From: Candidatus Kaiserbacteria bacterium
GTDB lineage: Bacteria > Patescibacteriota > Minisyncoccia > Phycocordibacterales > Phycocordibacteraceae
NCBI GenBank assembly: GCA_963699165.1
Contig: OY969413.1
Span: 63,506 to 127,505, forward strand
Reading direction: 5' to 3'
Length of the DNA: 64,000 nt
Position numbers and translations under genes: made by a program. This document shows, in pieces, positions 36,084-63,476 of this stretch (position 1 is its first letter; every line of letters begins with the position of its first letter). The notes beneath the pieces were generated by a model, which saw only the letters and a list, made by a program, of their open reading frames with translations, was not told where the DNA came from and ran no database searches.

Positions 36084-36495
36084 GGTCGTTTGTTTTAGGG
36101 TGATTAAGATACGGTTCGACAAGCCGCTTGGTTTCGGGTTTCAGTGTTCCGAACACTTCGAAGAAGATATTTTCATCTTCATCACGAGCGATGGCGAAGG
36201 CGGACTCGAAGGCGCGCTGACGATAATCGGGATGCTTATTTTTCAACCAGAATATCGTTGCCGTGAGATTGCCGTTTTTGATGCCGGAGAGTATCTGACT
36301 CTCGGCGGCATCGTTCATGAGCGCCGTGCCTTCGGCGAGCGCGTCATCAACGAACTTCGCGAATTCCGAATCTTCTTTCTTCCACCTGTACAGGCTCGCG
36401 CGACTCATGCCGGTTTTCTGACATGCGACTTCAATGATCGGCGTTTTGCGTAATTGTTCAAGCAACAATTCTTTGGTACGAATAGTCTTTTTCAT
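36076..36495 (-). CDS. phage terminase small subunit-like HTH DNA-binding protein
   Basis: 139 aa with an N-terminal HTH (..KTGMSRASLYRWKKEDSEF..) immediately upstream of terL. Confidence 0.5.
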   Translation of the reverse strand: MKKTIRTKELLLEQLRKTPIIEVACQKTGMSRASLYRWKKEDSEFAKFVDDALAEGTALMNDAAESQILSGIKNGNLTATIFWLKNKHPDYRQRAFESAFAIARDEDENIFFEVFGTLKPETKRLVEPYLNHPKTNDHG

Positions 36496-37274
36496 ATTTG
36501 TTTTGCTTTAAGGTTGGTACAGTGCTCCCAGCGAGAAATCGCTGTGAGGCAATATTCGAGATCAATTTCGACCGCGAAGCATCGACGCTTCGTTTGCTCG
36601 CACGCTAACAGCGTGGTACCGCTGCCAAGAAATCCGTCGTATACCACATCGCCGATTTCGCTTGAGTTGAGAATCAAACGACGAATAAGTCCGATGGGTT
36701 TGGTTGTCGGATGAAATTTGCTTTTGACAGGACGCGGATAGAACAAAACCGACTTATCTTTTGAGTGACGGAATATATGCGTGCCATGCCAGCCGTAAAG
36801 GATCAATTCATGTTGGGGTGCGTAATCGAGGCGACCGATAACCGCTTGCGATTTCACCCACACAAGAAGCTGCGCGACCTTGAATCCAGCGTCTAACATT
36901 CCTTCGCGAAGCGACCACACCATTTTGTCTGCATTGAACACATACGCGGCGTTTTTTCGGGCGAGATAAGGAGCGATTGTTTCAAGCCATGCGCGGTTGA
37001 ACGCCCGATATGATTCATCGGATTGTAGTTCGTCGTTCGCAACAATTTTATCTTTTGAGAGTTTTGAGAATCCGCGTTTAGATTCCACTGCCGAGACGGC
37101 ATACGGTACGTCACAACATACGAGATTTATATGGATATTACCTATAAGCCTCTCCAGCAGTTTTTTGTCACGTGCGTCGCCGTATGCGATGCGGTGATCG
37201 CCAAGTTGCCAGATAGTGCCAGGCTTAATTGAGTTTGCGGGCTTTGATTCCAGTTGCGTTTTCATACCGTTCAA
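36492..37274 (-). CDS. DNA methyltransferase (N6_N4_Mtase family, phage-type)
   Basis: It has a DVPY (DPPY-like) motif and the C-terminal SAM-binding motif VVYDGFLGSGTTLLACEQTKRRCFAVEID. Confidence 0.8.
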   Translation of the reverse strand: MNGMKTQLESKPANSIKPGTIWQLGDHRIAYGDARDKKLLERLIGNIHINLVCCDVPYAVSAVESKRGFSKLSKDKIVANDELQSDESYRAFNRAWLETIAPYLARKNAAYVFNADKMVWSLREGMLDAGFKVAQLLVWVKSQAVIGRLDYAPQHELILYGWHGTHIFRHSKDKSVLFYPRPVKSKFHPTTKPIGLIRRLILNSSEIGDVVYDGFLGSGTTLLACEQTKRRCFAVEIDLEYCLTAISRWEHCTNLKAKQI

Positions 37275-38508
37275 TAATTACGTCCACGAATATCGGCTCT
37301 GCTTCGACCATGTAGCAGATTCGTTTCATCTGATCGGCGGCCATGAGCGTACTACCCGAGCCACCAAAGAGATCCAGCACCGCATCACCCGGCTTCGTAC
37401 AACGCTTGAGTGGCCGTTCGTGCAAGGTCACTGGCTTTTGCGTCGGATGACAATATTCTTGACTGGCGACGCGTTTCGCTAACCAAATATCCGCTTGATC
37501 CATGATGTCGTCGAGCAGTTTATTGCCTGACGGTCCAAGTTCTTTGTTCAGAACTTCTGCGAAGTTCTGCCCGACGGGTGCGATGTACGGCTTATTGCGC
37601 GTCGCATAGACGCAGGGCTCGTAACACTTTCCGAAGGCTACGCCAGGTACAGGGTTGGCGGGTCCCTTAATCCACAAACAAACTCGGCGATTTACGAGAC
37701 CAGCATCGGCAGAAAGTGACTGCACCATACCAATATATTTTTGGTCGCAGAAAAAGAATATGTGACAATCAGGGTCGCATACAACAAGCGCGTTCTCCAT
37801 CGAGCGTTTCAAGAAAGAACGATATTCTTCGTCTGGTTTCGAGTCGTCTACATTTCCGCCATACGAACCTTTGCCGCCAACGCCACGATCGTAATCAAGC
37901 GAGATGTTATAGGGCGGATCACAATAAATCATTCCGATTTTTGCCCCACAGGTAACTTTCTTTACAGTTTCGATATCGAGCGAACTTCCGCAGGCAAGAC
38001 GGTGCGACCCGAGCGCGTATAGATCGCCAGTTTTCGCCTTCGGTTCCTTCACGCGCTTTACCGCCTCGTCAAAATCAAATTCATCATCCGAAGTTTCAAG
38101 CGCGTCCGCAAAGATAATCGACAGATCCGAATCATCGAAGCCCGATGCGAGCATCGTATCGATATCGAAGTATTGGGAAATGAGACCATAATCCCAATCG
38201 CCATGAATACGATTACTTGAAAGCAGGTAACGATCGTACTCCGCCTTTGTGAGCTTTCTCGAAGGAACGCGTACTGGAATTTCTTCATCGATACGACCCA
38301 TGGCGGCTAACGCGGCGATACGCTGATGACCTGCAACTAGAGAGTTATCAAGGTCTATAACAGGAGCTTCAACAATTCCGAATTCTTTCAAGCTCTTTTT
38401 GAGGTCTGTCATCTGTTTCGGACTCATAATCCTTGGATTGTGTGGATTCTGAACGAGGTCGGAAACTTTTCTCGTCTCCGTCGTCCACGTGAGCGGCTGC
38501 TTTTTCAT
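37225..38508 (-). CDS. ParB-like nuclease domain fused to DNA methyltransferase
   Basis: It has an N-terminal ParB/Srx domain (..IVEAPVIDLDNSLVAGHQRIAA..) and a C-terminal MTase (..MIYCDPPYNISLDYD.., ..VLDLFGGSGSTLMAA..). The start is chosen at MKKQPLTW; the longest ORF begins at 38613. Confidence 0.75.
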   Translation of the reverse strand: MKKQPLTWTTETRKVSDLVQNPHNPRIMSPKQMTDLKKSLKEFGIVEAPVIDLDNSLVAGHQRIAALAAMGRIDEEIPVRVPSRKLTKAEYDRYLLSSNRIHGDWDYGLISQYFDIDTMLASGFDDSDLSIIFADALETSDDEFDFDEAVKRVKEPKAKTGDLYALGSHRLACGSSLDIETVKKVTCGAKIGMIYCDPPYNISLDYDRGVGGKGSYGGNVDDSKPDEEYRSFLKRSMENALVVCDPDCHIFFFCDQKYIGMVQSLSADAGLVNRRVCLWIKGPANPVPGVAFGKCYEPCVYATRNKPYIAPVGQNFAEVLNKELGPSGNKLLDDIMDQADIWLAKRVASQEYCHPTQKPVTLHERPLKRCTKPGDAVLDLFGGSGSTLMAADQMKRICYMVEAEPIFVDVIIERYENATGIKARKLN

Positions 38509-38627
38509 ATCGGTATATTTGCTGTTAAAAGGCGCATCGCGCGCCCTACAGCAGATACCCACGACTTTCGGCATTTTTGTGACATATAAAAAGCCGCATG
38601 GAAGCGGCTTCAACGGGGAATCCTATT

Positions 38628-39689
38628 TTAGGACAGTAATGGCTTCAGTTTCGGGAGAGCGCGGCTTTTCGCCTTTCGTTCGGTAGCAGTGAGAATTTCA
38701 CCGCGATAATCTTTTTCTATGGCCAGTCGCTCTTTTGGAGGGAGCTTTGTGATCGCACGAGCGATATCGATTTCTTGGATATTGATGGTATCAGTATGCC
38801 TTGCGAGTACCGCATCTGCTCGGGTTTCATCATTGAGAATTTTATCCAACGATTCTTCCAAAAAATTATCTTTGATTTCGTACTTGCCGCGCCCGAGGTT
38901 GTAATCTTTATGGCGGAGACGAAGCCTCTCCGGAAGTTCCGATAGATACAAAGGTTTTCGACGCGGCTTAGCAAGCAGTTTCTGCGTCTCATCTACTGCA
39001 AACGTGAGATTGCCAAGGGAAGTTGAGGCATAGAGATACTGGTAGGTCGATTTGAAACCGCTCCATGCGCGCGTAAGACGCCGCATTAAATCTGCACGAT
39101 GAGGCCCACACGGATCCTTTTCCTTTACACGAGCGAGGAGAGCTCCAACCTCAACAATTTCTGCCCGCCTTATTTCGAGCTCTTTAATGGTTTTGCACCA
39201 GCCGCGAATCATTTCTTTTGTAACGGATGGATACTTTCCCCGGATTTCATTCCATGCTTCTGGAGTGAATTGGTCTTCCCATGACCAAAGAATCTCCGAT
39301 TGATGATCTGGAGAGAACGGCGGTTCGGATTCTTCAGAGATTTGCAATAATGGATTATGTAAAGTTTTGCTCTCTTCGTCCAAATATCCTTCGTATAAAA
39401 TTTCGGTTAGGGAATGCAGAGATGCTAAAACTTCGGGCGATTCTTCACAATCTTTGGCCGCAAAAAGGAAGTACTGTAGGCAAATCAATTGCAATTGAAG
39501 GTCGTTGAGGAAGAAAAGATCTGGGTGTTGAGCCCGCTTCAGTGCGAATTCTTTCATAACAAGACCCAGATCTGCCCATACATCTTCTGCCGTGCGTGAG
39601 GGCAGACGCAAACGCAGTTGGAAGTTATGAATGGCTTGATCGAACTTCGTTCGTTCGTGATTGATAACGGTGCTGTGCGGAGTGGTCAT
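38628..39689 (-). CDS. hypothetical protein (phage-like cargo)
   Basis: 353-aa ORF with protein-like composition and no recognisable domain. Confidence 0.5.
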   Translation of the reverse strand: MTTPHSTVINHERTKFDQAIHNFQLRLRLPSRTAEDVWADLGLVMKEFALKRAQHPDLFFLNDLQLQLICLQYFLFAAKDCEESPEVLASLHSLTEILYEGYLDEESKTLHNPLLQISEESEPPFSPDHQSEILWSWEDQFTPEAWNEIRGKYPSVTKEMIRGWCKTIKELEIRRAEIVEVGALLARVKEKDPCGPHRADLMRRLTRAWSGFKSTYQYLYASTSLGNLTFAVDETQKLLAKPRRKPLYLSELPERLRLRHKDYNLGRGKYEIKDNFLEESLDKILNDETRADAVLARHTDTINIQEIDIARAITKLPPKERLAIEKDYRGEILTATERKAKSRALPKLKPLLS

Positions 39690-40059
39690 ACTCTAATTTT
39701 ACCCCCAATTCAAGCTTTTTATTACGAGAGTGTCGTGAGACACGGCTTCGTAGATTCAGCTACTTTTTTATAGCGCTTCATTCGTTTCAATTCTTAGTGA
39801 ATACGCCATATTCCGCCAAGAATGCTACATCAGTCGCATTCTTCGATTTTGACCCCCAGACCGAGTGGCTTCGTCATGCTACACTGAAAGGATGTCAAAA
39901 ACCCTTACGGTGCCTCGCCGGGCAAGGTTCTAGACGGACTTGGGGCACCTGAACGCGAGTGAAAGGCATTGGACAGCATGCCGACTGCTCGGCATGTGGC
40001 CGGGCTCGAATGCCGGAGCGATGTTCGGCTGAAAGCCGAACCGCGAGGCGGGGTAGCGA

Positions 40060-40110
40060 ATCTTAGCAGAATGCGAATGCGTGGAGCATTCTGCTTAGCA
40101 ATTCGTGACC
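40060..40110 (+). other. conserved hairpin element, copy 2, abutting attR
   Basis: GAATCTTAGCAGAATGC-GAATGCGTGGA-GCATTCTGCTTAGCAATTCGTGACC forms a 13-bp near-perfect stem and lies immediately 5' of the 19-bp tRNA-Phe repeat. Confidence 0.45.
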
Positions 40111-40129
40111 GAGCCCGGGTCCAAGCACT
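40111..40129 (+). repeat. attR: 19-bp direct repeat of the tRNA-Phe 3' end
   Basis: CGAGCCCGGGTCCAAGCAC is identical to tRNA-Phe positions ~23357-23375. The upstream T-arm sequence is not conserved, so only the tRNA 3' fragment is present. Confidence 0.7.
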
Positions 40130-40184: not shown

Positions 40185-40285
40185 GCATCGCCTCACTGTC
40201 GAGTGCGATGTCTCATCGCACTGTCGAGTGCAATGCTTCATCGCACTGTCGAGTGCGACGCATCGTCGTGCTGTCGAGTACAGAA
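40185..40285 (+). repeat. four tandem ~25-bp repeats (YCATCGCACTGTCGAGTGCRATG-like)
   Basis: The units are cctcactgtcgagtgcgatgtc / tcatcgcactgtcgagtgcaatgct / tcatcgcactgtcgagtgcgacgca / tcgtcgtgctgtcgagtacagaagca. Copies of the GCACYTGAACG motif flank the array at ~40125 and ~40283, with a third copy at ~39938. Confidence 0.6.
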
Positions 40286-50312: not shown

Positions 50313-50340
50313 ATAACTACGGACCGCAAGTATTTGTCTT

Positions 50341-51042
50341 GGCCACGCATAATTTTCTGCTGAAAATTTGCGCGGCTCCTAAAGGACTGCGGTTTGTATG
50401 CCAATCGCTTCGCTCTTGGACAAACCGGAAGCCCTCCTCGGGCCTCATTCAGCAGAATGACCTACTGGGGTCGCCCTGCGGCTTTCGAGTCCCTTACTGC
50501 GCTACAAAACAATAATCGCCACACGCTTCGCGTATGACTCGTTTGTTTTGTGGCGGGACTCGGTCACGAATAATTCGTTCGCCGCCGCTCACGAATTTTC
50601 GCGACCCCGTCTCGGCCACGCACTCGCTTCGCTCGCGCGGCTTCGCGGCCTCCGACTTTCGAGTCCCTTACCGCGCTACAAAATGATAGTCGCCGGTCAC
50701 TTTCGTGACCGGCTCCTTCATTTTGTGCGCGGGCTCGGCCACGCATAATTTTCTGCTGAAAATTTGCGCGGCCCCGCCTCCGGCCGTCGCCGTCCGGCTT
50801 TCGAGTCCCTTACCGCGCTACAAAACAATAATCGCCACACGCTTCGCGTATGGCTCGTTTGTTTTGTGGCGGGACTCGGTCACGAATAATTCGTTCGCCG
50901 CCACTCACGAATTTTCGCGACCCCGTCTCGGCCACGCGCTCGCTTCGCTCGCGCGGCTTCGCGGCCTCCGACTCTCGAGTCCCTTACTGCGCTACAAAAC
51001 AATAATCGCCACACGCTTCGCGTATGGCTCGTTTGTTTTGTG
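50341..51042 (+). repeat. complex tandem repeat array containing four copies of a tRNA-Val 3'-end fragment (TTCGAGTCCCTTACCGCGC)
   Basis: There are two full 174-bp units (~50483-50656 and ~50800-50973) plus a 67-bp partial unit, interleaved with a variant unit (~50657-50799). Each unit starts with CTTTCGAGTCCCTTACYGCGCTACAAAA. The motif GGCCACGCATAATTTTCTGCTGAAAATTTGCGCGGC recurs at ~50341 and ~50737. The ORFs here are repeat artefacts. Confidence 0.7.
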
Positions 51043-51106
51043 CCCCCTAACGGTACCGCAAGACACCAAGTGAGGCAATTGCAAGGCCTTTGGGCGACCT
51101 ATACAA

Positions 51107-51125
51107 CGTACGGCTTGAGGCCTAA
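51107..51125 (+). repeat. 19/20-bp direct repeat (left copy) TTGAGG-CCTAACGGTCACG; right copy at ~58281-58300 next to tRNA-Val
   Basis: The two copies are 19/20 identical and 7.2 kb apart. They bracket the DGR, the IS481-like element, two IS-A copies, the IS-B fragments and a serine-recombinase gene fragment. Confidence 0.5.
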
Positions 51126-51537
51126 CGGTCACGATCAGAACTGGACACTTTAGACACTACATAGCGTGTTCCACCAGTGTCCTGTTTTCGGGATTCCAGC
51201 AAGCCTTTCAAGGGTATTTGAGAGATTCGGAGCCTTAACCCACCATCCCGGAGGGAGTCCAACGGTACCGCACCAAAAAACGAACAAACCGAACACGAAA
51301 GCGCATATTTTGAGTGTTCGTATTCTGTTCGGTTCTGGAGGCTCATAGGCACCCAATTCGTGAGACAGGTGTCTCATTTGCCCTCCACAGCATGGCTTAT
51401 TTGCTCAATATGAGACAAATGAGACACAAAAGAGGGGTATTTGGGGTGTCTCATTTGTCGAAGTTAAAATGCCAATAAATGCCAATTTTTGAGAATGTGT
51501 AAGAAATAAAAACAAGGATACATATGTTGCATATGTG

Positions 51538-52563
51538 TCAAAGATTTCGGCTTCGGTTTGTATCTGCGCCGAGGGTGATTGCCACCTTGGTTTTAGGGAT
51601 AAGCGCCGCGAGCGTGTGCGCGTTGCCGTGCGAGAGCAGTCCTCGGTACGATGCGAGTGTAGCCTCCTCCGGTTCTCCTTGGAGCGCCTTGAGCATCCTT
51701 CGCTTGGTGCTGGTGCGCAGCACGTCGTGATCGGGGAAATGCACCCAGCCGAGAAAGTCGATGCCTGACGCGAGGGTGGAGATGGAGACCTTGTTCGGGT
51801 GCAGCTCGAGCTTGAGCGTATCGCGCAGGTATTCGCGTATGTGCGGCAGTAGCGCTTCAAGCTCGATTCGATCCATTGAGAGCACTACGAAGTCGTCGGC
51901 ATAACGGAGGTAGTAGCGGGCTTTGAGGCGATGCTTCACCCATTGGTCGAACTCGTTCATGTACACGTTCACGAGGAGCTGGCTGGTGAGGTTGCCGAGC
52001 GGGAGACCCTTCCCCGGCGTGCCGGAGCGGAAGCTCTCGATTACGTTTTGGAGCAGGGCGAGCGTGCGCTCGTCGTTGACGTGATTGCGCAAAATGCCGA
52101 GGAGCACTTCGTGATCGATGGAGGCGAAGAACTTGCGCACGTCGCACTTGAGTACCCACAGCGTCTTGGTGTGATTCTTGCTCGCTTTGTACGCATAGCG
52201 CTTGAAGGCGGCTATGGCGCGATGGGTACCCTTGTCGAGGCGGCAGGAGTACGAGTCGGGAATGAAGGTGCGATTGAAATAGGGATAGAGAACTCGATAG
52301 ATGGCGTGATGCGTGAGGCGGTCGCGCACTCGTGCCTTGTGAATGTCGCGGGGCTTGGGGTCACTAATCCTGAAATGCGAATACGGGCCGTGGCGATAGG
52401 TGCCGGACGCCAGCTCGTCATGGAGTTGCGAGATGTTTTCAACAAGGTTGTACTCGAAAGCCTGCACATCTTTCTTCTGCCGCTTGCCGCGTATAAATTC
52501 TTTCCATGCGTCGAGCAGATTATTGGGAGAAATGATACTTTCGTATGTATGAGTGATTTCCAT
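51538..52563 (-). CDS. diversity-generating retroelement (DGR) reverse transcriptase
   Basis: The RT domain carries the YADDFVV (YxDD) box and the DGR-specific LPLGNLTSQLLVNVYMNEFD motif. The N-terminus resembles DGR RTs (..RGKRQKKDVQAFEYNLVENISQLHDELASGTYRHGPYSHFRISDPKPRDI..). The start is taken at MEITHTYE; the longest ORF to 52779 adds a GC-rich low-complexity leader. Confidence 0.85.
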   Translation of the reverse strand: MEITHTYESIISPNNLLDAWKEFIRGKRQKKDVQAFEYNLVENISQLHDELASGTYRHGPYSHFRISDPKPRDIHKARVRDRLTHHAIYRVLYPYFNRTFIPDSYSCRLDKGTHRAIAAFKRYAYKASKNHTKTLWVLKCDVRKFFASIDHEVLLGILRNHVNDERTLALLQNVIESFRSGTPGKGLPLGNLTSQLLVNVYMNEFDQWVKHRLKARYYLRYADDFVVLSMDRIELEALLPHIREYLRDTLKLELHPNKVSISTLASGIDFLGWVHFPDHDVLRTSTKRRMLKALQGEPEEATLASYRGLLSHGNAHTLAALIPKTKVAITLGADTNRSRNL

Positions 52564-52604
52564 TCTTTTAGTTCCCCCCCCCCGCAATCGCCCCTGACAA
52601 GCTC

Positions 52605-52964
52605 GTGCCGGTGGTGTTGAAACTAAAGGAAGCATACCTCGCGTGGCAGCAGGCGCTTCCGCATGTCGCCAAGGCGCGGCGGCAGACCGTGGGGGCGCGG
52701 ATCGATGGGGCGCTCCTCGACACGCTTGAGCACGCCTTTCGTGCCGGGTATGCCTCGGGCACTCGCAAGCTGGAGGCACTTGAGTATTCGATCGAGAAAC
52801 TCGATGCCGCGAGGTTCTTCCTGCTTGTGGGCTGGGAAAGCGCCGCGCTCACGAACGCGCAGTACATGCGCATAGCAGGACTCTTAGTGGATGCGAGTAA
52901 GATGCTCGTCGGGTGGAAGGCGTATATGGAAAAGAAAACTCCCGCGAATAGCGAGAGAAAGTAA
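52605..52964 (+). CDS. putative Avd-like four-helix-bundle accessory protein, encoded on the strand opposite to RT/TR
   Basis: 119 aa with a GTG start. Its helical heptad pattern (LKEAYLAWQQA.., ..LEALEYSIEKLDAARFFLLVGWESAALTNAQYMRIAGLLVDASKMLVGWKAYM) resembles DGR Avd / 23S-IVS four-helix-bundle proteins. The same-strand ORF over this region (52568..53062) is Ser-rich and not protein-like. Confidence 0.4.
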   Translation: MPVVLKLKEAYLAWQQALPHVAKARRQTVGARIDGALLDTLEHAFRAGYASGTRKLEALEYSIEKLDAARFFLLVGWESAALTNAQYMRIAGLLVDASKMLVGWKAYMEKKTPANSERK

Positions 52965-52967
52965 GAC

Positions 52968-53079
52968 GAGTTTCGGACGAGGAGTCGATTGTCAGCGTTC
53001 CAGCGATTGTCGTTGCCGAGCCTGTTGACGTTCGCGTTCCACCTCGAGTCGTCGCGATTCACGTTGGCGACCGAGACGC
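52968..53079 (-). repeat. DGR template repeat (TR), 112 bp
   Basis: It is 102/112 identical to the VR. All 10 differences sit at adenines of the TR sense (minus) strand: 9 A->G and 1 A->C. TR codons are rich in AAC/AAT (Asn). Confidence 0.85.
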
Positions 53080-53319
53080 TATGTGCCGCTCACCATCCAT
53101 ACCACCGCCCATCGAATGCTCTCCGGGCTGTATCTGATTTGAGGCCGTGAGCCCGCAAGCGGGCGACACCAACTTGAATTTCTTTTTTCGGGCGTTTATA
53201 CCCGGAACCTCGCCACCCGAAGCCCGAGGGCCGCAAATGCCAGCGTGTTCGTATAAAATTATACCCCTCTTCGCGCAAGCGCGAAGAGGGGTAATTCGAG
53301 GAAGCCCGAATACAGGGAC

Positions 53320-54015
53320 TTAGGATCCCAGTTTCGAAGCGTCCAAGTTGCGGACGAGGAGCCGATCGTCAGCGTCCCAGCGATCGTCGTTGCCGAGCCT
53401 GCTGACGTCCGCGTTCCACCTCGAGTCGCCGCGATTCACGCCGGCGACCGAGACGCTGCCGTTCTTGTCTTCGACGAAGAACCAGTTGGCCCAGCCGTCG
53501 GTGCGCATGCCGGTATTGCCCGGCTTGCTCTCCGTGGCCTCGACCATGGCCTCGGCTTGCGCCAACGTCATGGTGTGGCCGCGCTCTATGAGGAGCGCTG
53601 CCAGCTTCTCGATCGAAGTGTCCGCGGGAACGCCGAGGACAAACGCTGCCCATTGCGCGAACGTCGCGTCCCGCGAGGGAGTGAGCGTCGTGATGGTGCA
53701 GGCGGCCGCTTCAGGCTGTTCCTTGGGGAGCCAGCCGTCGAAGTCGCTGTCGCGGTACGCATAGCGCGAGGCGGTGAAGCACTTCTTCGTCGGCTTGCCA
53801 ACGACCACAGCGAGCTCTGTCGTCGCGGAAGCGGAAAGCAATGCGGCCGGTGCAGTTGCGCTCTCCGGTGGCACGAGGCCAGCAAGGAACTTCTTGGTCG
53901 CGGCGGGATTGTTCATCCAGCCGTCCATGATCTCGTCGGTCAGCGTGTCGGGAAAATTCTGGATCATGAACCCCGCGAATGCGGCGGTTTTCTTGTCGTA
54001 GGCCTTCGCACTCAT
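53320..54015 (-). CDS. DGR target (variable) protein with a C-terminal ligand-binding VR, probably a C-type-lectin/FGE-like fold
   Basis: 231 aa. The C-terminal ~40 residues are encoded by the VR, with the upstream ..GWANWFFVED.. motif common in DGR targets. Confidence 0.75.
   Translation of the reverse strand: MSAKAYDKKTAAFAGFMIQNFPDTLTDEIMDGWMNNPAATKKFLAGLVPPESATAPAALLSASATTELAVVVGKPTKKCFTASRYAYRDSDFDGWLPKEQPEAAACTITTLTPSRDATFAQWAAFVLGVPADTSIEKLAALLIERGHTMTLAQAEAMVEATESKPGNTGMRTDGWANWFFVEDKNGSVSVAGVNRGDSRWNADVSRLGNDDRWDADDRLLVRNLDASKLGS
53346..53457 (-). repeat. DGR variable repeat (VR) at the 3' end of the target gene
   Basis: It encodes ..NRGDSRWNADVSRLGNDDRWDADDRLLVRN.., where TR would encode NRDDSRWNANVNRLGNDNRWNADNRLLVRN. 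It ends ~24 nt before the target stop codon. Confidence 0.85.
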
Positions 54016-54133
54016 GTGCGCTTCTCCTTATGACAGTGGTTACTCAGGCCGGATGGCGCGAGTTGAAGCCCTATGTCCGTAACGGAATCAAGGTGCTTCT
54101 GAGATACATTATACACATAGAATAGAGGTTGCG

Positions 54134-55033
54134 TCAAGGCGTTGTACGCGTCCAGTACTTTTGGCAGTCCCCGACGGTTAATGTCGACACAATATACCGC
54201 AAGGGGGACACCATGCCGAGCGACTGGTGCGGGCGTTTGGTGTTGTACCAGATCAGCCAGTCGACAAGCTTCAGATTGAAGGAATGAATATCGTCCCGCA
54301 GCAGGCCCCGATTCAGCATGATGAAGTCCTCGGAGACGGTGCGATTGAATCGTTCGACGTGGGCATTCATCTTGGGAGTGCGGGGGCGGGTGTGAAAGTG
54401 CGTGAGCCCGAGTTCGGCACAGGCATCCTCGAAGTGTTTGGCGAACTCGCTCCCGTTGTCGGTCTGCAACTCGTCGATATCGAAGGGGCAAACCTCGATG
54501 ACTCGGCGAAGGAAGTCGTCCGCGCTTCTCGACGAGTGGTTCGTATACGCGCCCGCAAAGGCGAACTTCCGCTCCACGTCCACTGCCGTGAGGACGTACC
54601 GCTTCACGCCGTCGATGAAGCGGACGACGGTATCGAGCTCCATGCCGCGCTTGCCGGTGCGGCGAAGCTTGGTACGGCGTTTCTGCGGTGTTTCCGTGTG
54701 ATTGCCCGTACGTGCGTGGAACGAGAGCCGGCTCTGCTGCGGGAGCAGACCGCGGTTCTTCAAATCCAGAATGACCCGCCCAACGTATGACTCCGACACG
54801 GAGTACCCTTCTTCGCGCAGGAGAACGGCAAGCTTTGCTTTCCCAAGCCGGGGATGCGCCTGTCGTTCGCGGATGATGAAATCCTCGACCTCGGGCAGAA
54901 CAGTCCTCCTTCGACGCGCCTTCGGCGCAGTGCTCTTCGGGTCAAGTGCATCAATGCGGCCCTCGTGGGCTTTGAGTTCCTCCTTCCAGCGATACAAGGT
55001 GCGCTCCGAGGTGCCAAAGGCGTCGTATGCGGC
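54134..55033 (-). pseudogene. IS481-family transposase, 5'-truncated by IS-A copy 3
   Basis: rve integrase core (..LQTDNGSEFAKHF.., ..HVERFNRTV..). The N-terminal HTH begins abruptly at the IS-A boundary (~55034). Confidence 0.7.
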
Positions 55034-55095
55034 TGACCTGACCCCCAAATTTCAGACCATGTTCTAGACGGGATTAACCGCTAGAATGACGTCAT

Positions 55096-55353
55096 ATGAA
55101 GCAATACCGCATCGCTCCTGAGGTGAAGGAACAAATCATTAATCGAATCAAGAACGATGGTGTCACTGTCGCCCAAGCGGCCAAAGAGCATGGTATCCAC
55201 GAGACCACCATCTATGGCTGGCTTGGTGCGAAAGTGCAAGACGGTACCGCATCTGTTCTTGAGATTGCGAGACTTCGAAAAGAGAATGACGAACTCCTTC
55301 GTCTTGTTGGACTCATGACGCTCAAGCTGTCTGAAACCCAAAAAAAGAAGTGA
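55096..55353 (+). CDS. IS3-family transposase OrfA (IS-A copy 3)
   Basis: Identical to the other IS-A orfA copies. Confidence 0.85.
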   Translation: MKQYRIAPEVKEQIINRIKNDGVTVAQAAKEHGIHETTIYGWLGAKVQDGTASVLEIARLRKENDELLRLVGLMTLKLSETQKKK

Positions 55354-56162
55354 GCAAAGAATCTCCGATTGGTACGCGCACAACAGCGCGTACTCTTGGT
55401 ATAGCTCGTTCCACCTTCTGGTATCAAAAGAAGAAGCCTGACAAAGACTGGGCACTCAAATGCCGTATTGAAGAAGTCCTTCGAGAGTTTCCTTCGTATG
55501 GATACCGGAGAGTTGCCCTGTATCTCAAGGAGAACAAAAAGAAGGTTCAAAGAGTCATGCGACTCTTTGGTATCAAAGCATATCGAAGAAGAGGAAGACG
55601 GTGGAGGAAATCAAGGAAACAAGCCGTGGAGTATCCAAATCTCCTGATGCGGATTGTACCCGCCTATCCGCATCAAGCATGGGTCGCTGATTTCACTCAT
55701 GTGTATTTCAAAGGGAAAGACATTCGTGTGGCAACCACCATGGACGTATACACTCGAAGTGTCGTTGGGCTCGCCATTGGTACGCGAGGTGGAACCGTAC
55801 TTGTGACGCAGGCATTGTGCGCGGCACTTCTCAACCATCCTCGTCCCACCATCTTTCACAGCGACAACGGAGTGGAATACAATGCCGCATCCTTCCGAGA
55901 GATGCTCATCAATTTCGGCATCAGCATCTCTCGCTCAAAAAAGGGCTGTCCGTGGGAGAACGGGTACCAAGAATCGTTCTATGGAAAATTCAAAACTGAT
56001 CTGGGCGATCCCAATCGCTTCGATACGCTTGGTGAACTTGTTGCTGAAATCTATCAGACAATTCACCGGTACAACACCGTGCGTATACACTCAACACTCA
56101 AGATGGCACCGAGAGAGTTTGCGAAATCGCACATCACCCGTACACTATCTTCACTCGTCTAG
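55350..56162 (+). CDS. IS3-family transposase OrfB (IS-A copy 3)
   Basis: Identical to the other IS-A orfB copies. Confidence 0.85.
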   Translation: MSKESPIGTRTTARTLGIARSTFWYQKKKPDKDWALKCRIEEVLREFPSYGYRRVALYLKENKKKVQRVMRLFGIKAYRRRGRRWRKSRKQAVEYPNLLMRIVPAYPHQAWVADFTHVYFKGKDIRVATTMDVYTRSVVGLAIGTRGGTVLVTQALCAALLNHPRPTIFHSDNGVEYNAASFREMLINFGISISRSKKGCPWENGYQESFYGKFKTDLGDPNRFDTLGELVAEIYQTIHRYNTVRIHSTLKMAPREFAKSHITRTLSSLV

Positions 56163-56192
56163 GAAGTGGTCTGAAGAATAGGGGTCGGTACA

Positions 56193-56756
56193 AGTTTAAA
56201 CGTCAATTCTCCGATGAGTGCTTTAAGGAGACCGTTCTCCTTCTTCACTCTGTTGTGCTCAATGATACTCACTCCTTTTGCAGAGGTGCCAAGCCAAGCA
56301 TAGATAGTGACGGTACTGACTCCGTGTTCTTTCGCTGCCTCAGCGACACTGATGCCATCGTTTTTGATACGGTTGATAATCTGCTCCTTAATCTCAGGAG
56401 CAATACGGTATGCTTTCTTTGCCATAGGTACATTCTAAATTAGCTGCTGGTATTTAGAATGAGTGTCCGACGTTTGGGGTACCTTGCATACTGACTCCGT
56501 GTTCTTTCGCTGCCTCAGCGACACTGATGCCATCGTTTTTGATACGGTTGATAATCTGCTCCTTAATCTCAGGAGCAATACGGTATGCTTTCTTTGCCAT
56601 AGGTACATTCTAAATTAGCTGCTGGTATTTAGAATGAGTGTCCGACGTTTGGGGTACCTTGCAACGGTTGATAATCTGCTCCTTAATCTCAGGAGCAATA
56701 CGGTATGCTTTCTTTGCCATAGGTACATTCTAAATTAGCTGCTGGTATTTAGAATG
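56193..56756 (-). mobile_element. three nested/tandem partial copies of the IS-B orfA-proximal end (~294, ~172 and ~93+30 bp)
   Basis: All three fragments share the IS-B end ...GTCCGACGTTTGGGGTACCTTGCA. The first (56193..~56488) includes a truncated orfA (56159..56425, different C-terminus). The second is ~56489..56663. The third (~56664..56756) is split by IS-A copy 4 and continues at ~57916..57945. Confidence 0.7.
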
Positions 56757-56786
56757 TGTACCGACCCCTATTCTTCAGACCACTTC

Positions 56787-57599
56787 CTAGACGAGTGAAG
56801 ATAGTGTACGGGTGATGTGCGATTTCGCAAACTCTCTCGGTGCCATCTTGAGTGTTGAGTGTATACGCACGGTGTTGTACCGGTGAATTGTCTGATAGAT
56901 TTCAGCAACAAGTTCACCAAGCGTATCGAAGCGATTGGGATCGCCCAGATCAGTTTTGAATTTTCCATAGAACGATTCTTGGTACCCGTTCTCCCACGGA
57001 CAGCCCTTTTTTGAGCGAGAGATGCTGATGCCGAAATTGATGAGCATCTCTCGGAAGGATGCGGCATTGTATTCCACTCCGTTGTCGCTGTGAAAGATGG
57101 TGGGACGAGGATGGTTGAGAAGTGCCGCGCACAATGCCTGCGTCACAAGTACGGTTCCACCTCGCGTACCAATGGCGAGCCCAACGACACTTCGAGTGTA
57201 TACGTCCATGGTGGTTGCCACACGAATGTCTTTCCCTTTGAAATACACATGAGTGAAATCAGCGACCCATGCTTGATGCGGATAGGCGGGTACAATCCGC
57301 ATCAGGAGATTTGGATACTCCACGGCTTGTTTCCTTGATTTCCTCCACCGTCTTCCTCTTCTTCGATATGCTTTGATACCAAAGAGTCGCATGACTCTTT
57401 GAACCTTCTTTTTGTTCTCCTTGAGATACAGGGCAACTCTCCGGTATCCATACGAAGGAAACTCTCGAAGGACTTCTTCAATACGGCATTTGAGTGCCCA
57501 GTCTTTGTCAGGCTTCTTCTTTTGATACCAGAAGGTGGAACGAGCTATACCAAGAGTACGCGCTGTTGTGCGCGTACCAATCGGAGATTCTTTGCTCAC
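56787..57599 (-). CDS. IS3-family transposase OrfB (IS-A copy 4)
   Basis: Identical to the other copies. Confidence 0.85.
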   Translation of the reverse strand: MSKESPIGTRTTARTLGIARSTFWYQKKKPDKDWALKCRIEEVLREFPSYGYRRVALYLKENKKKVQRVMRLFGIKAYRRRGRRWRKSRKQAVEYPNLLMRIVPAYPHQAWVADFTHVYFKGKDIRVATTMDVYTRSVVGLAIGTRGGTVLVTQALCAALLNHPRPTIFHSDNGVEYNAASFREMLINFGISISRSKKGCPWENGYQESFYGKFKTDLGDPNRFDTLGELVAEIYQTIHRYNTVRIHSTLKMAPREFAKSHITRTLSSLV

Positions 57600-57853
57600 T
57601 TCTTTTTTTGGGTTTCAGACAGCTTGAGCGTCATGAGTCCAACAAGACGAAGGAGTTCGTCATTCTCTTTTCGAAGTCTCGCAATCTCAAGAACAGATGC
57701 GGTACCGTCTTGCACTTTCGCACCAAGCCAGCCATAGATGGTGGTCTCGTGGATACCATGCTCTTTGGCCGCTTGGGCGACAGTGACACCATCGTTCTTG
57801 ATTCGATTAATGATTTGTTCCTTCACCTCAGGAGCGATGCGGTATTGCTTCAT
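57596..57853 (-). CDS. IS3-family transposase OrfA (IS-A copy 4)
   Basis: Identical to the other copies. Confidence 0.85.
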   Translation of the reverse strand: MKQYRIAPEVKEQIINRIKNDGVTVAQAAKEHGIHETTIYGWLGAKVQDGTASVLEIARLRKENDELLRLVGLMTLKLSETQKKK

Positions 57854-57945
57854 ATGACGTCATTCTAGCGGTTAATCCCGTCTAGAACATGGTCTGAAAT
57901 TTGGGGGTCAGGTCAATGAGTGTCCGACGTTTGGGGTACCTTGCA

Positions 57946-58196
57946 TACTGTTAGAGAGCATCAGCATCGACGAGATTGGGGCTCGGCATCTCATCGAAAG
58001 AGAGGTATCCCGGTACAACAAGCTCCGGGCGGCCATGCAGGACAAAAGTGAGAAGGTGAAGGCAGACGAAATGGATATACGGAAGTACGCAAAGTATCTT
58101 CTTGAGAACGGGACACCATCGGAACAGCGGGAACTACTCGGGCATCTCAAGGGAAGGATCATCCTGAAAGACCGGAAGGTGGCTATCGAAAATTAG
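57946..58196 (+). pseudogene. 3'-terminal fragment (~80 codons) of a large serine recombinase gene, truncated by the IS-B/IS-A cluster
   Basis: The in-frame translation ..[76 protein letters not shown]-stop is homologous to the C-terminus of the recombinase at 25634..26983 (..[56 protein letters not shown]..). Confidence 0.65.
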
Positions 58197-58210
58197 AGCG
58201 CCCAAAGCAA

Positions 58211-58245
58211 AACCTCGCGATGAAAATCGCGAGGTTTTGCGTCAA
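58211..58245. terminator. bidirectional hairpin terminator
   Basis: AAAACCTCGCGATTTTCATCGCGAGGTTTTG. Confidence 0.6.
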
Positions 58246-58321
58246 ACACCCCGAAAGGTACCGAACCACCTATTCTCATTTTGAGGGCCTAACGGTCACG
58301 TTTTTAGGCCGCTGACTGCTG

Positions 58322-58394
58322 TGCGCGGTAAGGGACTCGAACCCCTGACCCTCTCAACGTCAATGAGATGCTCTACCAACTGAGCTAACCGCGC
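58322..58394 (-). tRNA. tRNA-Val (anticodon GAC)
   Basis: The minus strand reads GCGCGGTTAGCTCAGTTGGTAGAGCATCTCATTGACGTTGAGAGGGTCAGGGGTTCGAGTCCCTTACCGCGCA with anticodon loop TTGACGT. No CCA is encoded. Confidence 0.85.
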
Positions 58395-61182: not shown

Positions 61183-61476
61183 TTAGCTTATGGAAATGGA
61201 ATGTGAAATCATTGAGTTATGTATCTCCGTGAATTCGCTAAAAGTGATGATGGTGATTTTGTCCAAGTCAAAACCGTAGTGCCGGAAAACTTCCCGCGCA
61301 TCTCCGTCAAATCTTTTTTCCCAATCAAAACCGACTCGCAAGCATAGTTTTTTCAGTGACTCCACCGACGGTCCTTCGATTTCTACGTAGGCGGGAATTT
61401 TCGGCCAGCTGTCGATGTCAATCGTGACATCATCCGGTACTATTTCGTAACAGGGAATCGGGCAAGCGCTCGTCAA
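61183..61476 (-). pseudogene. C-terminal fragment of a CYTH-like (CyaB/thiamine-triphosphatase-type) protein, possibly truncated at an att-repeat zone
   Basis: The region ..YVEIEGPSVESLKKLCLRVGFDWEKRFDGDAREVFRHYGFDL resembles CYTH C-terminal strands. Its N-terminus starts inside repeated tRNA-Glu 3'-end fragments. Confidence 0.3.
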
Positions 61477-61482
61477 AAAATC

Positions 61483-61606
61483 GACCCCACGGGGAATCGG
61501 TCAAGCGCTCGTTCGTCGCCGTCGCTCCTCACTCCGCCTGACCACGCTCGCGCGACCCGACCTGCTGGCCGGGTGCCCGCGCTCGCCTTCGATTCCCCGT
61601 GGGGTC
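61483..61606. repeat. 17-bp inverted pair of the tRNA-Glu 3' end (GACCCCACGGGGAATCG) flanking a 90-bp GC-rich spacer, plus a 20-bp direct repeat GGAATCGGKCAAGCGCTCGT
   Basis: The direct copy lies at ~61483-61499 and the inverted copy at ~61590-61606, both identical to the tRNA-Glu gene 3' end at ~61658-61674. GGAATCGGGCAAGCGCTCGT occurs at ~61454 and GGAATCGGTCAAGCGCTCGT at ~61492. Confidence 0.6.
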
Positions 61607-61656
61607 TACAAAAATATAATCGCCCGATGCTCATCGCATCGTTCTCATTATTTTTG

Positions 61657-61728
61657 TGACCCCACGGGGAATCGAACCCCGATTTACGCCGTGAAAGGGC
61701 GCTGTCCTAACCGTTAGACGATGGGGCC
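61657..61728 (-). tRNA. tRNA-Glu (anticodon TTC)
   Basis: The minus strand reads GGCCCCATCGTCTAACGGTTAGGACAGCGCCCTTTCACGGCGTAAATCGGGGTTCGATTCCCCGTGGGGTCA. No CCA is encoded. Confidence 0.8.
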
Positions 61729-61778: not shown

Positions 61779-63476
61779 TCATTTCCGCCACGAAATGCTA
61801 GGATAGCCAGCACGGGCTACGGCGAAAACTGACCTTTCGCTCGTCCAGACATCGCATGCGATGCAAATAAGGAGAGGTGGCAGAGTGGTCGAATGCACTG
61901 GTTTCGAAAACCAGCAGGGGTGTAAGCTCCTCGTGGGTTCAAATCCCACCCTCTCCGCAATAGGTAGGACAGTACTAGATTTATCAAAATTATTTTGGGC
62001 TTCACGCAGTGAAGCCCATTGGGGTTGAGCCACGCCGCGCGCTTCGCGCGTATGTAAGGAAAGGTTGGAGCCGAAGATTTTTTGGAGGGAGAGTTTTTTG
62101 GAGCGGAGGTCGCTGCTTTTTCGTATTTCGTCCAGCATTGAAGCGTCCTTTATGAAATCACGCAGAGGTTGGAGCCAAAGCGTAGCGTCATGCTCCAGTC
62201 GGACGATCTGTTCCTCGGCCGACTTGCGCTCAGACATGAGCGCACGCCTCCGCTCAAGGTAGGTATCGCGGTCTATGTCCTGCTCGGAATAGAGATCAAC
62301 GAAGCGGCTCATCTTGCCGTCCAGTTGAGCAATCTTCGCTCGGAGTTCTTGCACGGCAGTCATAGCAACGGACTCGGTCTTCTGCTCGTCTTCGTTAGCC
62401 ATGCGGTATAGCTCTTGCGTCCAATCCGTAGGCATAACATAGAGCGAAAGTAGATCGGAGAGTTGAGCACTCAATACCTCCTCGCGGACATAGGACTGCG
62501 AACAGATACCGCGTTTCTTGGTACAACGGTAGTAGACGTAGCGGTGGACGTTGCCGTTCTTCTGGTGCTTGGTTATCACTTCTCCCGTTATCATCCCGCC
62601 GCACTCGCCGCAACGCATAATGCCGCACAGAGGCTGCGGCTCATTCTTGGGCTTGTGTCGCTGTCTGCCGCGTAGCTCCAAAACGTCCTGCACTTTGTCG
62701 AAAGTGGCTTTTGAAACTAGGGGCGTATGCACACCTTTGTACACCTCTCCGGCGTACTCGAAATGACCGTAGTAGAAGACGTTGGTGAGCATCTTCTTTA
62801 TGCTGTCCTTTTTCAAAGGCTTGTCGCCGCTACTACCGGACTTCTTGATCTTCTTACTTCTGATACCACGCTCATACAGAAAAGTGGCAATGTCCTCGAA
62901 GCGTGATTTGTTCTCAGCGTACAGCTCAAAGGCCGTTCGGATGGCCGGAGCCTTGCGACGATCAACTTCGACGCGCTTCGTTCTGGGATTGTTGATATAG
63001 CCCAACGGAGCAAGCCCCGGATACTCGCCGCGTCTCGCTTTCTCCCGTTGTCCCCGTTTCGTATTCGCACTCAAGTCGCGGATGTAGTGGTTCGCCATTC
63101 CAAGCTCGACAGACATCATCAGCACGTTATCGGCGGGAAGAAAACTGCGATCGTGAGTTTGTATGTGTTGAATTACGGACTGCTGCAAAAGCCAACTGAT
63201 CTGGCCGCCGTCCACCGGATTACGGGCAAGGCGATCTATCTTCCAACACACGATGCCCTGCGCTTCGCCCGCGATGATACGTCGGATTATATCGTTAAAG
63301 ACGGGACGACCCGGCTTCTTCGCGGATTGCTTCTCCACGAACTCGGCCGCAATCTCCAACCCCTCGCGCTTAGCGAGGGAGCGCAACTCAGAGAGCTGCG
63401 CGTCTATCGAGAGGACTTGCTTGTCCTCGACATCGGTACTCTTGCGGGCGTAGAGGAAGTAGTGGGGCATAGGCAT
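61779..63476 (-). CDS. large serine recombinase (integrase of a tRNA-Ser-associated element); ORF reads through the opposite strand of tRNA-Ser
   Basis: It begins MPMPHYFLYARKSTDVEDKQVLSIDAQ.. (resolvase domain), followed by a recombinase domain, a zinc ribbon (CGIMRCGECGG..YYRCTKKRGIC) and a coiled-coil. The last ~58 codons (..ERVGFEPTRSLHP..) overlap tRNA-Ser antisense, so the true C-terminus may lie near 61960. Confidence 0.8.
   Translation of the reverse strand: MPMPHYFLYARKSTDVEDKQVLSIDAQLSELRSLAKREGLEIAAEFVEKQSAKKPGRPVFNDIIRRIIAGEAQGIVCWKIDRLARNPVDGGQISWLLQQSVIQHIQTHDRSFLPADNVLMMSVELGMANHYIRDLSANTKRGQREKARRGEYPGLAPLGYINNPRTKRVEVDRRKAPAIRTAFELYAENKSRFEDIATFLYERGIRSKKIKKSGSSGDKPLKKDSIKKMLTNVFYYGHFEYAGEVYKGVHTPLVSKATFDKVQDVLELRGRQRHKPKNEPQPLCGIMRCGECGGMITGEVITKHQKNGNVHRYVYYRCTKKRGICSQSYVREEVLSAQLSDLLSLYVMPTDWTQELYRMANEDEQKTESVAMTAVQELRAKIAQLDGKMSRFVDLYSEQDIDRDTYLERRRALMSERKSAEEQIVRLEHDATLWLQPLRDFIKDASMLDEIRKSSDLRSKKLSLQKIFGSNLSLHTREARGVAQPQWASLREAQNNFDKSSTVLPIAERVGFEPTRSLHPCWFSKPVHSTTLPPLLICIACDVWTSERSVFAVARAGYPSISWRK
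61871..61957 (+). tRNA. tRNA-Ser (anticodon CGA), class II with a long variable arm
   Basis: GGAGAGGTGGCAGAGTGGTCGAATGCACTGGTTTCGAAAACCAGCAGGGGTGTAAGCTCCTCGTGGGTTCAAATCCCACCCTCTCCG. No CCA is encoded. Confidence 0.85.

Follow-up and report, generated by a model that had tools for sequence, protein, structure and literature searches.

The 64-kb window analysed here, that is, the whole 64,000-nucleotide stretch of contig OY969413.1, belongs to a bacterium of the candidate phyla radiation (CPR), and the TauD gene adjoining the array described below is annotated as Minisyncoccia in GCA_049279115.1. This array is composed of hairpin units that carry copies of the 3′ end of tRNA-Val(GAC), and a related unit is found behind tRNA-Glu(TTC) in the same window. 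All these units proved to be copies of a single module of 155-175 nt with no open reading frame (ORF), which recurs behind tRNA genes in metagenome contigs. The features concerned are the following.

50338..51042, − strand: entire array, with four modules in tandem, of which three are full and one is partial, and a distal tail
50876..51041, − strand: module M1, on the side nearest the tRNA (nhmmer, covariance model and sequence)
50736..50867, − strand: module M2 (nhmmer and covariance model)
50560..50726, − strand: module M3, with the variant core H1′ (nhmmer and covariance model)
50461..50551, − strand: module M4, partial (nhmmer and covariance model)
58321..58394, − strand: tRNA-Val(GAC) gene, source of the sequence copied in the array
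61483..61728, − strand: tRNA-Glu(TTC) gene (61656-61728) with one attached module (covariance model and nhmmer)

The copied sequence is the 19-mer TTCGAGTCCCTTACYGCGC, found on the + strand of the array exactly at 50484, 50658 and 50800 and with one mismatch at 50974. The sole further match in the window was 58323-58341 on the − strand, corresponding to positions 54-72 of tRNA-Val(GAC), from the T-loop to the last acceptor base, and 0.09 hits would be expected by chance even with three mismatches permitted. Therefore, the four tRNA-Val 3′-end copies claimed by an earlier, sequence-only reading of this DNA are real, and the base-by-base match to the tRNA is not the coincidence that this reading had allowed for. 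The sequence 5′ of each 19-mer presented no similarity to the 5′ part of the tRNA above that of shuffles, which agrees with the claim that these are partial tRNA copies and not pseudo-tRNAs. The tandem repetition was also confirmed, but not the uniform period of about 174 bp, since the start-to-start spacing of the 19-mers was 174, 142 and 174 nt; Tandem Repeats Finder, proposed as a check, did not call the array. Repeat finding and blastn revealed a block of 214-234 nt repeated at a spacing of 316 nt with 94-96% identity.

Each 19-mer was found within a hairpin of about 80 nt, where a hairpin of about 70 bp per unit had been proposed, and the second recurring palindromic element corresponded to the 36-nt GGCCACGCATAATTTTCTGCTGAAAATTTGCGCGGC, present in two 100% identical copies (50341-50376 and 50737-50772) and belonging to a family of six related hairpins inside the array. 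When folding was compared with shuffles, the z score was −16.7 for the − strand and −10.0 for the + strand, with whole-array energies of −374.6 versus −308.7 kcal/mol and 19 versus 7 G·U pairs in a span-limited refold; the − strand folded better in 11 of 11 sub-elements. The array had no match in Rfam 15 at gathering score or at E ≤ 10, the sub-threshold matches being hairpin noise, and the only Rfam families found in the window were tRNA and RNase P, so that the units correspond to no known non-coding RNA family in that database. Similarly, seven module loci had no Rfam match besides tRNA.

Read on the strand of the tRNA, the module is composed of the tRNA 3′ end (S1), the dinucleotide AC, a core, an antisense arm (antiS), two hairpins and a second copy of the tRNA 3′ end (S2), which is followed by the native trailer. 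The core consists of an A-tract, a variable hairpin and a T-tract; antiS, placed after one bulged A, is the reverse complement of the 3′ 19-20 nt of the neighbouring tRNA, and S2 is a direct copy of its 3′ end. In the Val array, two hairpin families, H1 and H2, alternate on the − strand. H1, of about 80 nt, is present in four copies of two variants and comprises a degenerate sense arm, ACAAAAyrAAnGAG, a 9-bp hairpin, GGCGAYTATyrTTTTGT, one A and GCGCRGTAAGGGACTCGAA, which is the 3′ end of tRNA-Val in reverse complement. The degenerate sense arms read CGAGTCCC-GCC-AC and CGAGCCCGCGC-AC on this strand, and the variant H1 copy (50658-50735) carries a wholly different inner hairpin together with compensated changes in its A/T stem. 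H2 is present in six copies of three variants, which have in common the stem GGYCGCG.../...CGTGRCC with a conserved G·T wobble.

In M1, the core (50994-51041) and an antisense arm with one mismatch to tRNA-Val (50974-50992) are followed by hairpins H2c and H2a, and a single C, at 51042, is all that is left of the sense arm. M2 contains the core (50820-50867), an antisense arm matching at 19/19 positions (50800-50818), a short GC linker and hairpin H2b with the loop CAGCAG, its degenerate sense arm (50868-50878) being just beyond the module coordinates. M3 presents a sense arm (CGAGCCCGCGC, 50727-50737), the core (50678-50726), an antisense arm (50658-50676; 19/19), and then H2c and H2a; its inner core hairpin, with a GAAA loop, is different and compensated, and its core is almost the same as that of the module attached to tRNA-Val(GAC) in the metagenome locus L031. 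M4 retains a sense arm (50552-50562), a core (50504-50551) and an antisense arm (50484-50502; 18/19), distal to which are a unique hairpin-rich tail (50377-50483) and a terminal H2b hairpin (50338-50380). Although detached from the tRNA, the Val antisense arms are still complementary to it at 18-19 of 19 positions, whereas the sense arms have decayed. The core types H1 and H1′ are about 75% identical, which argues for at least two acquisitions, while the 316-nt repeat, together with the presence of three Val modules at locus L001 versus four in the window, argues for later duplication or deletion, or for assembly collapse. A terminator consensus scan called three of the cores on the − strand and one on the + strand, with the stem and the T-run 7-9 nt apart.

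The H1 covariance model revealed a fifth copy at 61585-61671, directly behind tRNA-Glu(TTC) and 3 kb from tRNA-Val (35 bits, E = 5e-7). This module has its core from 61657, with antiS at 61588-61606 (19/19 to tRNA-Glu) and S2 at 61483-61499. On its own strand, tRNA-Glu ends in TTCGATTCCCCGTGGGGTC-AC and is followed by the core AAAAATAATGAG-hairpin-GGCGATTATATTTTTGT, one A, and the antiS GACCCCACGGGGAATCGAA, which is perfectly reverse-complementary to the 3′ end of tRNA-Glu; GC-rich hairpins, the junction ...TTGAC and the direct copy CGATTCCCCGTGGGGTC come next, with S2 placed 110 nt beyond antiS. Since the Glu core is homologous to the Val units and the arms are those of the local tRNA, the apparently inverted copy is intrinsic to the element. 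The sequence-only reading had considered the array inverted relative to tRNA-Val and had invoked a lost second tRNA-Val gene or an inversion mediated by an insertion sequence (IS). However, the sense arms, the core and the other hairpins are all on the tRNA-Val strand (−), and neither event is needed, because the module is palindromic and the exact 19-mer is the antisense arm that forms part of it. The module profile gave five nhmmer hits in the window, none of them at tRNA-Gly or tRNA-Ser, and the module-free tRNA trailers of the window are palindromes of A-tract, hairpin and T-tract.

The distribution of the module was surveyed by scanning the core pattern ACAAAANNNNNGAGN{12,26}GGCGAYTATNNTTTTGT against JGI metagenome contigs, which returned 51 hits at 49 loci against a chance expectation estimated in this analysis at <1; about two of the hits look spurious. 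A 3′ end of a tRNA gene predicted by ARAGORN was found within a few bases of the beginning of 36 of the 51 hits, the remaining ones being placed at contig edges, within arrays or detached from a tRNA. The abutting tRNAs were those for Ala, Arg, Gly, Ile, Leu, Lys, Tyr and Val; they had 15 standard anticodons among them, besides one 'Stop(tta)' call, and tRNA-Glu of the window and of locus L055 raised the total to 16 standard anticodons. antiS was present right after the core in 33/51 hits (at least 15 nt of the tRNA end, at most two edits), with a mean score of 12.3 against its own tRNA versus 6.2 against other tRNAs, and S2 was present 84-210 nt downstream in 27/51. S2 begins at C56 after a conserved ...TGRC junction, runs to A73-C74, and is followed by A-rich, native-looking trailers and terminators that resemble those of the module-free tRNAs of the window, although it is often decayed or internally deleted (L016, L017, L028, L031 and the Val arms of the window). 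The 96 ORFs near modules were ordinary housekeeping genes, indicating that the module is the entire insert. The module is shown to be an orientation-specific, structured and widespread insert, variable in number, with about 19 bp of tRNA (C56-C74) on either side; the tRNA-proximal copy, S1, keeps the tRNA gene intact. Taxonomic placement is restricted to the organism of the window (Minisyncoccia) and to L031 and L055, its syntenic relatives. A tRNA-Gly(ccc) carries a module in L045 and none in the window or in L004. An exact 23-mer of the Val unit had no hits in viral, genome and metagenome collections, indicating that the Val version is lineage-specific. A looser core pattern gave three chance hits in coding DNA when applied to viral contigs and was discarded, the pattern being then tightened.

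The alignment of nine full modules comprised 64 base pairs, 40 of which presented compensatory double changes. In this alignment, 88.9% of the cells were paired, versus 73% after shuffling and about 43% after sliding, and the covariation score was 0.44, versus 0.17 for shuffled and about 0.1 for slid alignments. The loops of hairpin I (CAGCAG) and hairpin II (GCGACGGCG) were conserved, and the segments GAG and GGCGAYTAT were shared across loci at many tRNAs and samples. On the sense strand, G·U pairs exceeded A·C pairs by 32 to 10 overall and by 22 to 4 in hairpins I and II. In the minimum-free-energy folds of read-through transcripts, antiS paired with the 3′ half of the tRNA itself at 17 of 17 loci.

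The comparison with related loci placed the Val array in its original context. L031 is syntenic with the window and contains tRNA-Val(GAC), one module, and the genes for SpoU, a methyltransferase (MTase), DHH, TsaD and an aminoacyl-tRNA synthetase (aaRS), with identities of 78%, 67%, 46%, 69% and 70%, respectively; the tRNA, the module and SpoU are in one orientation, and TauD-NUDIX is not present. The core in L031 differs from the window variant H1′ only by compensated inner-stem changes. This synteny indicates that the window array is in its ancestral place behind tRNA-Val, and the sequence-only suggestion that relatives be inspected for a tRNA-Val gene at the orthologous site was answered by a tRNA-Val(GAC) directly upstream of the single module and then SpoU. 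Copy number was variable among loci: in L055, tRNA-Val(GAC) is followed by a single module and tRNA-Glu by three in tandem, versus four and one in the window, L021 carries two modules, and L002 ends within an array.

The explanation favoured here, which has about an even chance of being correct, is that the array is a pile-up of a miniature, non-coding and non-autonomous insertion module specific for tRNA 3′ ends. Modules would enter through recombination at the tRNA 3′ end, catalysed in trans, and the long S:antiS hairpin on the tRNA-sense strand would be either the folded single-strand substrate or a structure kept matched by palindrome correction. Template switching is an established mutational route to the correction of quasi-palindromes, and such correction could maintain the match of antiS to each tRNA; alternatively, antiS might be a guide. 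Repeated insertion at one tRNA and unequal crossing-over between S copies would generate tandem arrays and changes in copy number. Pairing of antiS with the tRNA in a read-through RNA would harm the tRNA; the terminator-like core between the two could therefore act as an insulator, and a role for the hairpin is more plausible in single-stranded DNA, as with integron attC or the attP of CTX-phi.

Several observations weigh against such a pile-up of insertions. An empty/filled site pair was not found in near-identical genomes, so that mobility is inferred only, and no recurrent neighbouring recombinase or transposase was seen among the 96 ORFs that could be taken for the mobiliser. The colonisation of a new tRNA requires that S1 and antiS both change, yet the cores are alike across tRNAs, which is hard to explain by classical attP evolution. 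Moreover, with 7-9 nt between the stem and the T-run, the core is only weakly terminator-like, and the varying stems, conserved loops and G·U excess point to a single-stranded form, which could just as well be a functional cellular RNA. Large serine recombinases were considered as the linked enzyme and discarded, since they were near only three module loci and on the wrong side of tRNA-Glu. A bolder proposal, which is possible but doubtful, is that the module represents either a tRNA-homing element of a new kind or an RNA linked to tRNAs, in which the internal arm of 19-20 nt, placed between conserved scaffold hairpins, serves as a programmable guide or as a folded single-strand mimic of an attachment (att) site and determines the tRNA gene behind which the module is found; such an arm would explain the near-identical cores at 16 anticodons in the absence of a linked recombinase.

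Among the other explanations, it is rather unlikely that the module is a structured non-coding RNA, or a cis-acting tRNA trailer, with a cellular function tied to the tRNA, the arrays being gene duplications. The RNA could extend from near antiS to S2, with its ends forming a minihelix resembling an acceptor/T-stem, or it could be an antisense element sequestering tRNA 3′ halves or fragments. The module is always on the tRNA-sense strand and directly behind a strongly transcribed gene, and its covarying stems with conserved loops, the 32-to-10 excess of G·U pairs with conserved ones in hairpins I and II, the better folding of the − strand throughout the Val array, and the persistent complementarity of the detached Val antisense arms beside decayed sense arms speak for an RNA. 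In contrast, the frequent decay or deletion of S2 at the four loci named above and in the Val array means that an antiS:S2 helix is not maintained, and the pairing of antiS with the tRNA 3′ half, predicted in every fold, would wreck the tRNA. Besides, only some tRNA genes per genome carry a module and its copy number differs in close relatives, unlike a housekeeping RNA. Guide-directed homing, in which the antisense arm, flanked by conserved scaffold hairpins and acting as RNA or as folded single-stranded DNA, would direct a trans-encoded enzyme to the tRNA gene that it matches and S1/S2 would be the target-site duplication, is clearly unlikely. It would account for the fact that the only variable internal segment is exactly complementary to the target and lies between conserved structured parts, for the fixed extent (C56-C74) of the direct repeat, and for the alike cores at different tRNAs, which are easily obtained if the guide alone must change. 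On the other hand, no candidate effector gene was linked to the module among the neighbouring ORFs examined, and a 19-bp duplication with an inverted copy could also arise from attP-type identity blocks plus palindrome correction.

The origin proposed by the sequence-only reading, in which the units are plain att scars, that is, leftover junctions of large elements or prophages that serially entered tRNA-Val and were subsequently lost by deletion, with the array inverted by an IS or derived from a lost tRNA-Val, is decidedly improbable. The copied segment, from the T-loop to the 3′ end, is in fact the usual att identity block, ISs are abundant in the window, and a 16.8-kb prophage-like island at tRNA-Phe is bounded by the same type of direct repeat with an H2-like hairpin at its far junction; serial integration of tycheposons at tRNAs leaves partial tRNAs as well (bioRxiv 10.1101/2020.12.28.424599). 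Both the att identity block and the occurrence of more than one event were retained from that proposal, the two diverged module types fitting more than one insertion plus duplication. The derivation from large elements was not, since the whole unit is conserved, gene-less and folded into covarying hairpins in dozens of unrelated housekeeping contexts, its orientation is intrinsic and requires no inversion, and in L031 the orthologous position is occupied by the same gene, tRNA-Val(GAC), rather than by a second copy. Finally, a replication by-product, with terminator palindromes behind tRNAs extended by template switching and amplified by slippage, with neither mobility nor function, is very improbable: native tRNA trailers here are already A-tract/hairpin/T-tract palindromes and template-switch correction would hold antiS matched to S1, but the conserved non-palindromic parts shared by many loci (GAG/GGCGAYTAT, the hairpin loops and TGRC) would be unexplained.

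Other features of the window are related to the array by position or by sequence, as follows.

51043..58320: segment of 7,278 bp between tRNA-Val and the array, with CAC at both ends
51114..51133, + strand: 20-nt direct repeat TTGAG(G)GCCTAACGGTCACG, with a second copy at 58281-58300, 21 nt 3′ of tRNA-Val
51538-54015, − strand (Avd on +): complete diversity-generating retroelement (DGR)
40049..40128, + strand: H2-like hairpin ending in GTGAC, then a direct copy of the tRNA-Phe 3′ end (40109-40128); a related junction

The segment 51043-58320 starts exactly at the tRNA/module boundary; it comprises a 0.5-kb non-coding stretch, the complete DGR, one IS481-like element, a pair of IS3 copies and an ORF of 84 aa, and the present trailer of tRNA-Val lacks the AC-AAAA-hairpin-TTTT seen at other tRNAs. 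From the synteny with L031, and with the DGR placed elsewhere in relatives, the segment is inferred to be an insertion that cut the array off from tRNA-Val. The history of the window may have begun with the gain of at least two module types by tRNA-Val(GAC) and the duplication of a 316-bp stretch; later, the 7.3-kb DGR/IS segment would have been inserted precisely where the tRNA and the module meet, so that the array ended up 7 kb from its tRNA. The 20-nt direct repeat belongs to the motif CYAACGGTMMCG, which occurs four times (51047, 51122, 51259 and 58289). The modules at L034 (6230), L050 (4381) and L054 (− strand, 8216) are detached from a tRNA, and foreign DNA starts there no more than a few bases from the S1/AC boundary, as it also does in the window, so the tRNA/module junction seems to be a recurrent insertion point. 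Within the segment, a possible 75-aa ORF (51150-51377, −) has a GGAGG ribosome-binding site and a hydrophobic segment, and is uncalled by the gene caller in L001; three ATGAGACAC boxes, which form inverted repeats (51369-51459), come before it. The two IS3 copies are tail to tail (55096-56162, +; 56787-57853, −), and between them, at 56314-56663, there is a perfect 175-nt ×2 tandem duplication resembling the 5′ part of an IS orfA (MAKKAYRIAPEIKEQ...).

The DGR comprises the reverse transcriptase (RT) gene (51538-52563; motifs LGNLTSQ and YADD), Avd (52605-52964, +), the template repeat (TR; 52967-53080) and the variable repeat (VR; 53344-53457), the latter inside a 231-aa target gene; 10 of the 11 TR/VR differences are at TR adenines, and a 14-bp GC hairpin (53262-53293) is placed just past the stop codon of the target gene. 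In L004, L005, L060 and L061, the DGR is located between the ribonucleotide reductase (RNR) gene and RNase P RNA or TPR-MurJ-LepA. In the corresponding region of the window (11569-20453), RNR abuts RNase P RNA (11569-14562) with no DGR, and the cassette is about 37 kb away in the 3′ flank of tRNA-Val, beside IS elements; the DGR thus appears to have been relocated as a unit. The possibility that the array is a DGR accessory was rejected, since the homology shared with the cassettes of L003-L005 breaks off some 50 nt short of the RT stop codon and the DGR has another location in relatives. The locus of the TauD orthologue in L006 was also inspected and presented no array, its intergenic gap appearing, when read by eye, to hold an uncalled ORF.

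The junction at 40049-40128, with its hairpin-GTGAC/CGAG arrangement, is the same as that inside the Val array and constitutes the far end of the tRNA-Phe island. This low-GC island (23302-40128; 16.8 kb) is bounded by the 3′ end of tRNA-Phe(GAA) (CGAGCCCGGGTCCAAGCAC) and its direct repeat at 40109-40128. It carries a large serine recombinase (25634-26983), HsdM-type and N4/N6 methylases, SIR2 with a HerA-like ATPase, the large subunit of a terminase (34302-36122) and several copies of ISs, and looks like a decayed prophage or defence island. Just beyond the direct repeat, at 40194-40279, there is a 25-nt ×3.4 tandem repeat (CACTGTCGAGTGCGATGCATCATCG) flanked by three GCACYTGAACGYSAG copies. 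Past tRNA-Arg(CCT) and its terminator, at 22838-22968, a hairpin-II-like hairpin ending in CGTGAC has a loop nearly the same as that of the island-end hairpin and is followed by a fragment resembling a tRNA 3′ end (..GGAGTCGATTCCTGCCAGTGGCAC); the hairpin and the fragment may be the remains of another module or att junction. Past the Glu module and a second partial copy (GAGCGCTTGCC-CGATTCCC) there is, at 61200-61450 (−), the C-terminal part of an ORF, CYTH/CyaB-like by eye and without its N-terminus, a gene that appears to have been truncated by events at tRNA-Glu. Beside tRNA-Glu, a large serine recombinase ORF (61779-63476, −) runs antisense across tRNA-Ser(CGA) (61871-61958, +), and the same layout with 36% identity in L055 (11385-12935) suggests an element integrated at tRNA-Ser.

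The 3′ ends of tRNA genes are classic landing pads for mobile DNA, and the known occupants are kilobase-sized and carry their own integrase. Here, a gene-less structured module of about 170 nt rebuilds the tRNA end, mirrors it and stacks into tandem arrays of variable size, at many tRNAs in little-studied CPR-type bacteria with small genomes, uncultured and of the kind found in groundwater. If it is mobile, a trans-acting enzyme and the re-matching of two arms for each tRNA are needed, which would mean either that the recombination substrate is new or that a mechanism resembling a guide is at work; as an RNA, the module would define a tRNA-linked RNA class so far undescribed. That the mechanism is new in kind is a possible but doubtful proposition. 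The literature search found no description of such a module, which is absence of evidence only. As a practical effect, modules yield partial-tRNA hits and assembly breaks or collapses (L002 and L001). The annotation problem of tRNA gene fragments resulting from element integration is already known (PMC9897764).

Some known systems share isolated features with the module, its core or its antisense arm. The primer-binding site of long terminal repeat (LTR) elements resembles antiS, a 19-nt segment perfectly complementary to a tRNA 3′ end and on the strand of an RT gene 0.5 kb away; unlike such sites, its complementarity ends at positions 72-74, before the CCA, of which just the A could pair, together with one C when the bulged A is looped out. 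Moreover, this RT belongs to a DGR that has a TR/VR pair of its own, homologous DGR cassettes elsewhere lack the array, and modules occur without a nearby RT. A CRISPR array was discarded because the sequences between the 19-mers are themselves repeated and structured, and no cas gene was found among the larger ORFs scanned against Pfam (a subset of the window ORFs). For the core, a retron, a group II intron domain V, a K-turn and box C/D were considered by eye, and none fits the defining sequence or geometry. Bidirectional intrinsic terminators behind tRNAs, including those of module-free trailers, share with the core the A-tract, GC hairpin and T-tract, but in the module a conserved GAG/CGAYTAT internal loop splits the hairpin from the T-run, and the antisense arm and two hairpins follow.

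Miniature transposable elements with inverted repeats (MITEs) and clusters of repetitive extragenic palindromes (REP) or bacterial interspersed mosaic elements (BIMEs) are, like the module, small, non-coding and palindromic, and form mosaic intergenic clusters of variable copy number. The module differs from them in being found at tRNA 3′ ends only and in one orientation, with a duplication of about 19 bp, and its inverted arms are not at both ends of the insert: they are S1, at or outside the left edge, and the internal antiS, whereas the right end is hairpin II-TGRC, and no parent IS was found. As for REP/BIME, only tRNA-linked copies, at two loci, were seen in the window, and there was no Y1/RAYT among the ORFs scanned.

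Integron attC sites and the attP(+) hairpin of CTX-phi used by XerCD are folded single-strand recombination sites, and in CTX prophages a second, inverted copy of att persists some 90 bp away from the junction, which resembles the antiS of the module. The likeness extends to the long, imperfect hairpin, which has a bulged base and a centre that varies, the conservation of structure over stem sequence, the strand bias and the tandem arrays of hairpin-bounded units. In fact, the module presents an S:antiS plus A:T stem with a bulged A as extrahelical base, a variable centre, and strand-specific conservation in its G·U bias. However, its stem is a tRNA 3′ end, the single-stranded DNA intermediate is purely hypothetical, and neither the R″/R′ boxes (RYYYAAC/GTTRRRY), nor R/L-box or dif-like consensus sequences, were seen on reading the aligned modules.

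The closest resemblance is to the tRNA-targeting integrative elements, whose attL/attR identity blocks were reportedly classified by Williams in 2002, including a T-loop sublocation. In both cases, the insert lies between direct repeats of a tRNA 3′ segment that begins at the T-loop and reaches the 3′ end, and the proximal copy rebuilds the tRNA; a tRNA-oriented direct repeat was found on both sides of the module, as in S1/S2 at tRNA-Glu, in the 27 survey hits with S2, and in the degenerate Val arms. In both cases, too, inserts can stack at one tRNA and older ones are pushed outward. The direct-repeat logic is that of the integrative elements, and the stacking resembles that of tycheposon islands (bioRxiv 10.1101/2020.12.28.424599). 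Unlike these elements, the module has only 155-175 nt, an insert without an ORF where integrase and cargo would lie, an internal inverted copy of the att block, covarying hairpins and no linked recombinase. Tiny size, the lack of any gene, a mirror arm, covarying hairpins and occurrence at many tRNAs are features that together match none of the families tested, and the module is apparently an undescribed, widespread element of tRNA tails.

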